The notes under the pieces were generated by a model. It had not been told where the DNA came from and made no database searches. It was given only the letters and a program-made list of their open reading frames with translations. Below, one piece after another: positions 20,484 to 22,587 of a stretch of 64,000 nt of DNA. The first letter of the stretch is position 1. Each line of letters starts with the position of its first letter. Position numbers and translations under genes: made by a program. The DNA lies in IMG/VR virus record IMGVR_UViG_3300028186_000155; one strand, written 5' to 3'. Source of the DNA: a virus (lineage: Duplodnaviria; Caudoviricetes).

Positions 20484-20911
20484 AACCCCTTTTCCAGTTT
20501 GCGCTCAACCTTCACTTGGAACGTGATGCTACGCTCTGCACGCGCAGGCAGCATGGAGAAAGCGAGGAAAACGTTACCGAGGTGTGCACGCCCAACCTTG
20601 TGGGCCTTACGGCGACCGCGCAGCCAGATGAATTTGATATCGCCGTCGTCTTTGTCCATCAGGCGCACCAGACAACGGTTTTTATCATCGTGAATTTCGT
20701 ATTTGGTGCAGGCCTGAACGTTGACGTTTTTCAGTTCTTCCACCAGCCCTTGGTGCTGCATGTTGGCCACGAATGCTTGGCACTCGGCAACCATTTGTTG
20801 CGGCGACACTTTGAACAGGCTTTCGGTCAAAGATTCTTTGAGTTGCGCGCTGATTCTTTCTTGCAGCATGCGCACCGTTTGACGTACAACGATCCGATCA
20901 ATTGGATGCAT
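20471..20911 (-). CDS. Stand-alone tail-sheath C-terminal-domain-like protein
   Basis: PIDRIVVRQTVRML...PARAERSIT parallels sheath DRINVRRL...PARSINYIT (T4 gp18, recalled). Confidence 0.65.
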   Translation of the reverse strand: MHPIDRIVVRQTVRMLQERISAQLKESLTESLFKVSPQQMVAECQAFVANMQHQGLVEELKNVNVQACTKYEIHDDKNRCLVRLMDKDDGDIKFIWLRGRRKAHKVGRAHLGNVFLAFSMLPARAERSITFQVKVERKLEKGLCRA

Positions 20912-21251
20912 TTTGTGCGGCCTCCCGTGACATGCGGCGTTCTTTTGAGCGGCCCAGTTTCCACGCGGCTTCTACGATTGCTTGGTTGATATTGCCGGGA
21001 ATTGGATCACGTGCAGTTCCCGCACCATAGCCCACGACGCCCCACATATCGTCATTGTTTTTGTGCTCTTTGCGGTAGGCCACAATCTGCTTGAACCCTT
21101 CCGCGAAATACACGTCAATTCGCAGGTACGTTTGCAGGGCCAAACAGTGGTCATTGTTGGTCAACGGTGCCCAGTCGATAGCCTCCATTTCTTCCTGCGT
21201 GCGATCAGCTGCAACACCGGCCAAACGTTCCATTTCTTTGTTGCCCATCAT
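20898..21251 (-). CDS. Small phage hypothetical protein
   Basis: WAPLTNNDHCLAL...QAIVEAAWKLG resembles a common small phage protein pattern. Confidence 0.7.
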   Translation of the reverse strand: MMGNKEMERLAGVAADRTQEEMEAIDWAPLTNNDHCLALQTYLRIDVYFAEGFKQIVAYRKEHKNNDDMWGVVGYGAGTARDPIPGNINQAIVEAAWKLGRSKERRMSREAAQNASN

Positions 21252-21574
21252 TTAATGTCCTTGAGGGTAAGCAACAGGCCAACCGGGGGATTGGCCGGGT
21301 CTTGAATATTGTTGATGAATGCAAAACGTTCCAGCGTCACAGCAGGCTGGAAACGGTCGAAGATTTCTTGCAGATTGTCACCGGGTGCCACGGTGTAAAC
21401 CGCGAAGTCACGGGCGTTTACGCGTTCGAACCACATTTCCGTATAGATCCGCACGTGGTCGCTACAGGTTGCACAACGCGTAAAGAAAACGTCACGATCC
21501 AGTGGGTCCAATTGTGAGGAAATGCGCTCGATATCAGCTGCTGTTTTATGAATTTCTTCGATCAATGCATTCAT
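21248..21574 (-). CDS. LysM-domain protein
   Basis: C-terminal YTVAPGDNLQEIFDRF...INNIQDPANPPVGLLLTL. Confidence 0.75.
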   Translation of the reverse strand: MNALIEEIHKTAADIERISSQLDPLDRDVFFTRCATCSDHVRIYTEMWFERVNARDFAVYTVAPGDNLQEIFDRFQPAVTLERFAFINNIQDPANPPVGLLLTLKDIK

Positions 21575-21583
21575 GCAGATTCC

Positions 21584-22204
21584 TTAACGGAGACGGATCA
21601 ACTGACCGGGGAAAATCAGGTCAGGGTTTTCCAGTTTGTTGATGCGTGCGAGTTCGCGCCAGCAAATGCCGAAAGTGGCGCCGATTTGGGACAACGTGTC
21701 GCCTGCAACCACACGGCAGTAACCGAGTATCAGACACTGGATCATACCGGAATAGTTGCGCACGTTGGTCAGCACTTCCTGCGGCAACGACAGGTCTTCC
21801 TTGTCGATCAGTTTCTGAATAGTTTCAGGCAGATTGTCTGCAATAAAATCGTCAGACAGTGCCTTGGGTTCGGCTGGTTTCCACAGCTTGCAGTATTTCA
21901 ACACGTTCGGCACGTCGGCGGAATCAACAGGCAACACCACAAGGCAAGTTGGCTCGGCGTTGCAGATGGTGTTTTCGTGGCCCGCGTGATGAATCAGCGT
22001 TTCCTGAATTTTCAGGAATTCGCGTTGAGTTGCACGCACCACAACCTTGCGGAAAGATTCGTCAAACCATTTGAAATAATGGGCACGTTGGGCGCCGTCG
22101 AGGCAGGTGAACTTGTCGTGTGCAGTCAGCACCGAATGCGCGACCAGTGTAGGCACCATGTAATCGGGCGCGTCTTCACGTACAGCGATGTACATTTTCA
22201 ACAT
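21584..22204 (-). CDS. Pth2 (peptidyl-tRNA hydrolase 2)-like domain fused to LysM
   Basis: KMYIAVRED, VAHSV, KWFDESFRKVVV, TCLVVLP; C-terminal VVAGDTLSQIG...INKLENPDLIFPGQLIRL. Confidence 0.75.
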   Translation of the reverse strand: MLKMYIAVREDAPDYMVPTLVAHSVLTAHDKFTCLDGAQRAHYFKWFDESFRKVVVRATQREFLKIQETLIHHAGHENTICNAEPTCLVVLPVDSADVPNVLKYCKLWKPAEPKALSDDFIADNLPETIQKLIDKEDLSLPQEVLTNVRNYSGMIQCLILGYCRVVAGDTLSQIGATFGICWRELARINKLENPDLIFPGQLIRLR

Positions 22205-22587
22205 TTTGGGAGTCCATGACAGAAAGAAACTTCGTGTTTTTTCGCGTAGACGTGGGCCAGCCGACGACTACGGAACCACAGTTGAATCATCGGGGCCTTG
22301 GTGAACGTGACGTATGCCCCTTTGCGCCCACTCTCGACCGTGTAACGCGGTGCCGTGTTGTGTTCCGTGATCAGCTGCGCCCAATCCTGCAAAAACTTCA
22401 GCATTTTCGAATCAGGATTTTCAATGGCTTCGCACGTCGATTCCATGGGCGCTGGGGAGTTTGCCCAATCCATGCGCTGGATCTTGAACGGTTGAAAACT
22501 CATACCGTGCGGCGCGTTTTCGAAATTGACCGTGAACTCTTCGGGCCGTTTGCCGTAATCGGAAAATCCATCTGCCACGAAAATCAC
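22198..22587 (-). CDS. Truncated tail-tube (T4 gp19-like) fragment fused to a small basic module
   Basis: GTG start at 22587 (GTGA overlap, AAGGA upstream); RPEEFTVNF...FQ and ENPDSKMLKFLQDW resemble gp19 RPNLFQVEI...FQ and ...QKFVDW (recalled). Confidence 0.55.
   Translation of the reverse strand: MIFVADGFSDYGKRPEEFTVNFENAPHGMSFQPFKIQRMDWANSPAPMESTCEAIENPDSKMLKFLQDWAQLITEHNTAPRYTVESGRKGAYVTFTKAPMIQLWFRSRRLAHVYAKKHEVSFCHGLPKC

Follow-up and report, generated by a model that had tools for sequence, protein, structure and literature searches.

Fragments of virion proteins and a putative shuffled basic module in a small-gene island of a phage related to HRDY3 and Lu11

The stretch of DNA analysed here (the window) comprises 64,000 nucleotides of the virus record IMGVR_UViG_3300028186_000155 (Duplodnaviria; Caudoviricetes) and contains an island, a run of ∼15 small minus-strand genes between an SbcC-like and an SbcD-like gene. 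A sequence-only reading had proposed that two of these genes, the sheath-like gene A (20471..20911) and the tube-like gene B (22198..22587), carry the same small basic module. As judged from profile comparisons, the C-terminal ∼40 residues of B are a genuine shuffled module, the constant part of a family with swapped virion-protein fragments. The best explanation of the data, to which we assign a probability of about 0.6 as a whole, is that the island is an array in which pieces of the phage's own virion proteins were copied and then recombined, that B is a tube chimera with the shuffled module, that A is separate, and that the module acts as a tethering tag.

Gene B and its basic module

Gene B (22198..22587, minus strand) encodes 129 amino acids plus a stop codon, with an apparently tube-derived N-terminal part and a basic C-terminal module. 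Its true start was found to be the GTG at 22587, not 22635; this start overlaps the stop codon of the upstream helix-turn-helix gene, and the B orthologues in Pseudomonas phage HRDY3 and in metagenomic phages begin at the same position. In four ∼310-kb phages the orthologues of B were 51–59% identical, with the block matched to A being the best conserved, and distant members were detected in L030/L031 (E = 1e-11). The peptides quoted for the proposed module were present exactly as given (residues 82–118 of B and 71–110 of A), in two genes which are real and conserved.

The phage's own tube genes were located with PF06841 (G000 95787-96596), and 17 tube orthologues and 7 B sequences were aligned. 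Comparison of the two alignments with hhalign gave a probability of 58.6% and an E value of 9.5e-5, with B residues 15–96 aligned to tube residues 18–132 and with residues 16–75 of B as the core Viterbi stretch. The score of 32.8 was well above those of 150 column shuffles (mean 13.0, maximum 22.3; z ∼8) and those of negative controls (11–14). Two blocks within B residues 15–75 (22363..22545) are homologous to residues 18–100 of the own T4 gp19-type tube (PF06841) and collinear with two conserved blocks of that protein, reading F-x-L-x-F-T-x-I-P-G-G … L-R-I-Q and L-K-D-W-A. These results supported a derivation of the N-terminal part of B from the phage's own gp19-type tail tube, as far as sequence can tell, and the description of this part as tube-like was borne out. 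B differs from such tubes in that it has no Pfam match, lacks 22 residues and has its C-terminal half replaced. The deletion lies between the two blocks, where the tube reads S-L-Q-T-V-E-V-E-L-F-G-H-K…, and the deleted residues probably correspond to the ring-stacking hairpin of the tube. Because of this deletion and the replacement of the C-terminal half by the module, B cannot be a tube subunit.

PF06841 gave no match at the B locus at E values up to 10 in a search of the own genome, and neither Pfam nor PHROGs held a family for B or its members. No similarity was detected between B and the sheath, and BLASTP of B against the gene following the sheath reported nothing. A 122-amino-acid protein at the position of B in L020 was considered as a relative of B, but no relation to B was detectable. 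Two adjacent gp19-like tube paralogues are present in the genome (G000:C1:95562-96068 and 96075-96632). In L069, a related 312-kb phage, a copy of 23 residues of the tube N-terminus (70% identity) was observed at a site separate from the tube gene and from the island (IMGVR_UViG_3300042010_000129:31067-32929).

The basic module of B spans residues 80–118 (22234..22350, minus strand), with the core F-R-S-R-R-L-A-H-V-Y-A-K-K-H at residues 105–118 (22234-22275). Its consensus, [RK]-[KG]-G-[AV] … F-R-S-x-R-x-A-[RKHQ]-[VIM]-x-x-K, was found at or near the C-terminus of several proteins in the islands of relatives, where G, F, S, R, A and K are the invariant columns; the net charge read from the sequence is ∼+8 over 31 residues. 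An iterated hidden Markov model (HMM), begun from the module of B alone, was run against 3014 open reading frames (ORFs) of 14 islands. In its first cross-family step it reached a family named D (E = 6.6e-5) and a family named C (E = 6.1e-4), then a family named E, and it converged on 15 ORFs, recovering gene B itself at E = 1e-21. The families were also linked independently by hhalign, with values of 3e-6 for B–D (module only), 1.9e-6 for B–C, 3.5e-9 for C–D and 2.9e-4 for C–E.

Tabulation of the fusion partners in relatives showed that the module follows different virion-protein pieces. In family C the partner is a portal-derived segment, which was aligned to residues 331–398 of the own portal (E = 5e-5). 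In family D (HRDY3 XDJ15183 and L017 P0025) the order is sheath hairpin, portal segment, module. Family E has another partner, and one of its proteins is headed by the sheath hairpin; PHROG tail-sheath matches were obtained on D and E proteins. B is absent from L017/L028, and there the module is found on the D protein. It follows from these alignments that the module in sister phages is located on sheath-derived as well as tube-derived pieces, and the suggestion of a modular design was thus confirmed for the module of B. B and C share in addition an N-terminal motif, [AE]-[DE]-G-F-x-x-Y-G (e.g. residues 5–13 of B; L031_4332_4745). Since this motif and the module are both shared, a variable piece of tube or portal lies between two ends that stay constant.

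Searches of Pfam, PHROGs and PDB sequences with A, B and the module-bearing proteins gave only sub-threshold sheath, tail-sheath and portal matches, and no similarity was found between the module and the tube, sheath or portal, or between the C and E proteins and the tube. The AlphaFold2 (AF2) model of B was of low confidence and placed strands at residues 81–87, 90–95 and 98–105 and a helix at residues 108–117; Foldseek with this model returned no match at E values up to 0.001. Three short strands followed by a helix of the pattern F-x-[ST]-x-x-x-A are, we presume from this low-confidence model, reminiscent of AP2 and integrase arm-binding domains. The helix of the module differs from those domains in being basic rather than acidic, and no Pfam match was obtained at E values up to 1 on the proteins of families B, C, D, E and F (the last is described below). 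The module is a new small protein module, one without a Pfam or PHROGs family.

Gene A and the resemblance of its insert to the module

Gene A (20471..20911, minus strand) encodes 146 amino acids and was identified by hhalign, sub-threshold Pfam matches and synteny as a stand-alone homologue of the tail-sheath C-terminal domain. A word-based homologue search had yielded only 4–5 members per family for A and B. By an exhaustive HMMER search with A, ten more small homologues were found, down to 19% identity, and an alignment of 14 family A members was built. This alignment matched that of the own-sheath C-terminal domain with a probability of 92.9% and an E value of 3.7e-7 over 97 columns, A residues 2–137 corresponding to residues 26–126 of the sheath C-terminal domain; the match takes in the beginning of the helix, of I-N-V-R-R type, and the two final strands. 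The D-R-I-N-V-R-R start of A is also matched by the solved sheath 9ev2. Sub-threshold matches to PF17482 (Phage_sheath_1C) were collinear and occurred on three A members (three of the 12 scanned and one of the four close members); the gathering threshold was missed, with 19.4 bits for P0001 against a cut-off of 26.9. A lacks the PF04984 body and so stands outside any full-length sheath subunit. It is alignable with the own-sheath C-terminal domain over nearly its whole length, yet it differs from PF17482 sheath proteins in being located in the SbcC–SbcD array, away from the tail genes. BLASTP of A against the sheath gave no match, and no similarity between A and the tube was detected. On these alignments, gene A is a clear homologue of the sheath C-terminal domain with an insertion, as had been read from the sequence.

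The insertion covers residues ∼82–111 (20579..20668, minus strand), the gapped part of the alignment to the sheath hairpin loop. The conserved loop C-D-x-x-N-N … N-N-D of the sheath is missing, and A has 25–35 extra residues where the loop reads S-R-N-N-S-P-A-D-I-A-N-N-D. Within the insert lies the basic core L-R-G-R-R-K-A-H-K-V-G-R (residues 97–108; 20588-20623, minus strand). Among the 14 members R100, R101, A103 and R108 never vary, and L97, K105 and G107 are almost constant; the only invariant positions of the family, R-R-x-A…R within L-R-G-R-R-K-A-x-K-V-G-R, thus fall in the insert. The orthologues of A in the four ∼310-kb phages are 51–59% identical, and the matched block is their best-conserved part. 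Throughout the clade of Lu11-like jumbo phages, A lies immediately upstream of the SbcD-like gene: it has this position in Lu11 and in every relative whose SbcD is at least 74% identical, and it also occurs in the L020 contig. The peptide pattern [GSA]RRxA[HKN]K[VIA]GR occurred at 31 places in the viral collection, six of which were confirmed, all of them in family A. Two large proteins (P0018, P0021) were considered as fusion partners of A and rejected, because one weak match was repeated 3–5 times in internal repeats.

The sequence-only reading had further held that the insert of A is the same module as that of B. A Smith–Waterman alignment of the two gave a score of 44 over 16 residues, IWLRGRRKAHKVGRAH vs LWFRSRRLAHVYAKKH, which was reached by 7–10 of 2000 shuffles (p ∼0.004). 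BLASTP of A against B reported nothing, because BLAST seeding misses a match of 16 residues. With hhalign none of the column shuffles reached the observed score (0/400 and 0/150), so that the match stood against shuffled controls. The basic stretch of A resembles the module helix over 13–17 residues. Of the longer motif that had been proposed for both proteins, [FL]-R-[SG]-x-R-x-A alone was kept in both families under wider sampling, while the W, the second R and both H were lineage-specific. An HMM of the A segment ranked B first among 4206 six-frame ORFs of the genome, but at E = 1, and the reverse HMM, from the B segment over the same ORFs, did not find A. No repeat at the DNA level links the two segments. 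AF2 on 4-sequence alignments gave mean confidence scores (pLDDT) of 45.9 for A and 42.1 for B; the modelled topologies differed, neither model being reliable. A complex prediction for A and B scored 0.00 with the partner fold uncertain, and it weighs neither way on binding. On these comparisons the resemblance of the two sequences appears to be real and is nominally significant, yet it is borderline and not established once all comparisons are counted.

At close to even odds, the two arginine-rich stretches are unrelated; their likeness would then be convergent, both binding acidic ligands of a similar kind, or plain chance. Small phage proteins often contain basic amphipathic stretches, and only ∼7 positions are common to the two families once both are widely sampled. 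When the A profile was compared with all 439 genes, the own sheath ranked top (P = 3e-5), followed by B (P = 0.0023) and the second sheath paralogue (P = 0.0045), with noise from P = 0.009; about one match at the P value of B is expected by chance among 438 genes, and the BLASTP result is in keeping with this. However, each of three features would be unlikely in a random match: ranking first genome-wide, lying in the same island and coinciding with the non-parental segment of the two proteins.

The alternative that the insert of A is a diverged copy by descent of the module of B, one tag having been grafted into a sheath loop and onto a tube fragment, is a serious though tentative possibility. 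In its favour, the hhalign signal grew with deeper alignments, from P = 0.0046 (4 × 4 sequences) to 0.0011 (14 × 5) and 9.5e-5 (14 × 7), beyond every column shuffle. B is the best non-sheath match of the A profile and outranks the second sheath paralogue, a true homologue. The two genes share the island, 1.3 kb apart, and in each protein the aligned stretch falls outside the part of structural origin (sheath in A, tube in B), with the invariant R-R-x-A of A aligned to invariant residues of B. A 78-amino-acid protein of L020 (…MWFVFRSRRQAH…), designated family F, looks intermediate (P = 0.0022 for A–F and 0.0028 for B–F). Against descent stands the genome-wide expectation of about one such match, together with the failure of both the reverse HMM and the iterated module HMM to find A; the latter never recovered it at E values up to 3, in the 3014 island ORFs or in the own genome. 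When the modules of C and D were added, the match of the widened profile to A fell to P = 0.003–0.01 over 13–31 columns, since the second R is missing from most modules, which read F-R-S-L-R-L-A. In addition, the near-invariant G99 and G107 flank the basic stretch of A, which suggests a loop rather than the helix of the module; the first strand of A, Y-E-I-H-D, is better explained as a strand of the sheath hairpin; and part of the A–B score of 31.6 pairs a tube-derived with a sheath-derived helix, which cannot be homology. On balance, the identity of the two elements is possible but somewhat less likely than not.

That the island is decaying debris of illegitimate recombination with structural genes, its fragments having no selected function, is very improbable: the fragments are short and the gene content of the island varies greatly between phages with 93% identical sheaths, but open frames are kept in phages at 20–59% identity, conservation within their proteins peaks in the module and in the A insert, A persists in the L020 contig and wherever the island has an SbcD of 74% identity or more, and the starts and stops of adjacent genes are tightly coupled.

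In the explanation which we prefer, copying and recombination of virion-protein pieces with A standing apart, gene A would have arisen separately and earlier, as a stand-alone C-terminal sheath domain in which a basic stretch flanked by glycines took the place of the hairpin loop. Several points weigh against this explanation. The A–B similarity is top-ranked and lies exactly in the non-parental segment of both proteins, so the separate origin of A may be wrong. The B–tube match reaches a probability of only 59%, and it is uncertain whether the alignment truly extends into the first strands of the module. The module has neither a Pfam or PHROG family nor a usable structure. Family E and the L020 protein join the module family only below threshold or at late iterations. 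Finally, the module-bearing proteins all come from one phage clade, and the evidence for shuffling is drawn from ∼10 genomes.

Possible functions of the chimeras

In the proposed mechanism, the first 75 residues of B would come from the gp19-type tail tube and the last 40–50 residues would form a compact, strongly basic module, consisting of a G-A strand and then an amphipathic helix F-R-S-x-R-x-A-[RKHQ]-[VIM]-x-x-K. The virion-derived part may give specificity by mimicry of, or docking to, the tube, portal or sheath or the factors that recognise these. With its ∼40 residues the module is too short for an enzyme; its most likely role is in binding or tethering, common to the chimeras and possibly directed at nucleic acid or an acidic protein surface. 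The virion-derived fragments probably cannot assemble. They would be candidates for decoying host sensors of portal or tube, for regulating assembly of the phage itself, or for poisoning rival phages.

A more specific form of this idea, that the island is a set of self-mimics of tube, portal and sheath with one basic module, maybe also in the loop of A, which serve as decoys or traps for Avs- or DSR2-like sensors or poison the tail or portal assembly of competitors, is considered unlikely. The shared module would here supply a common neutralising or tethering step. We know of no sensor of sheath proteins. Avs sensors are known to be triggered by portal and tail tube, and DSR2 by tail tube (PMC13581612, PMC10981675). 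The likeness is that the island copies the same virion proteins, portal and tube, and by analogy a non-assembling mimic could occupy the sensor, which is offered as a lead only. The DSR2 antagonist DSAD1 is not described as tube-derived in the abstracts consulted. Avs16 is reported to contact the tube hairpin, and B, from its sequence, may lack that hairpin.

No description of such chimeras of virion fragments with a basic module was found in the papers searched. They are best regarded as a form of known phage mosaicism, with a small chance of a new counter-defence principle. Non-assembling copies of sensed proteins on one constant tag would suggest an unexplored use of self-mimicry, which could serve against host sensing, against rival phages or in the control of own assembly. 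The idea is directly testable, since HRDY3, an isolate with a name and a recorded Pseudomonas host, carries both B and the protein with sheath hairpin, portal segment and module.

Neighbouring genes and genome setting

Upstream of B, a 91-amino-acid HTH_37 DNA-binding protein is encoded at 22584..22859 (minus strand; PF13744, E = 6.6e-7), its stop codon overlapping the start of B. In Lu11 an HTH_37 regulator is fused behind a sheath hairpin (P0024). The next gene (22856..23188, minus strand) encodes a 110-amino-acid protein whose residues 25–89 were aligned to residues 331–398 of the own portal (hhalign 67.5%, E = 5e-5), with BLASTP matches to P0025 at 3e-10 and 6e-9; families C and D of sister phages have the basic module after this portal segment. 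A 61-amino-acid protein that is essentially the conserved sheath β-hairpin is encoded at 23178..23363 (minus strand; sheath C-domain HMM, E = 2.5e-7). In HRDY3 and L017 this hairpin heads the protein that also bears the portal segment and the module. The D protein is thus split in the window into the 61-amino-acid hairpin gene and the 110-amino-acid portal-segment gene, both without the module, and B carries the module.

A virion-protein fragment was also observed outside the island. A 297-amino-acid ORF contains a clear copy of a portal segment (window ∼38582-38728, minus strand; G000:C1:25193-25339; phrog_16240 positions 290–339, E = 5e-11), far from the real portal gene at G000 289679-291646.

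Between B and A, a fusion of a PTH2-like part (peptidyl-tRNA hydrolase fold) with LysM is encoded at 21584-22204 (minus strand); the PTH2 match, at E = 1.3e-4, was just under the cut-off, and the HRDY3 annotation is 'endolysin'. Another small protein with LysM comes next (21248-21574, minus strand), which makes an odd combination. The island is bounded downstream by the SbcD-like nuclease (19122..20165, minus strand; HRDY3 annotation, Metallophos in homologues) and upstream by the SbcC-like ATPase (25178..27487, minus strand; HRDY3 annotation, AAA_23 in homologues). Directly downstream of SbcD, a lysine/alanine/proline-rich protein of 426 amino acids with KKPAA repeats and three P-G-R-P-x-G-S-K-N-K-P-K units is encoded at 17724-19004 (minus strand), and it is kept in relatives at 426–429 amino acids.

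The window corresponds, in reverse orientation, to the first 63.9 kb of a phage genome that is complete at 314,224 bp and has direct terminal repeats, and the closest named relatives of the phage are Pseudomonas phages HRDY3 and Lu11. These are members of the jumbo 'Lupandier' group (Lu11, PaBG), which is known for two sheath paralogues (PMC7412058), and both paralogues were found in this genome (G000:C1:72579-74228 and 93896-95533; 546–550 amino acids, carrying PF04984). Stop and start codons overlap for many neighbouring island genes, indicating that adjacent genes are tightly coupled, and few promoter- or terminator-like sites were found on the coding strand of the island. The same SbcC–SbcD array, with very variable content, was present in every relative examined. 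From sequence identities, the evolution of the island is far faster than that of the virion genes. In phages whose sheath C-terminal domain is 93% identical to that of this phage (L025–L027 against L007/L008, same contigs), the A protein was only 29–32% identical and the island gene set was different.

For PaBG, gene 191 is given as an SbcD-like subunit in the text and as an 'Unknown' 35-kDa band of the virion proteome in Table 1 and section 3.5 (PMC7412058). If this assignment is right, the nuclease adjoining the island is packaged.

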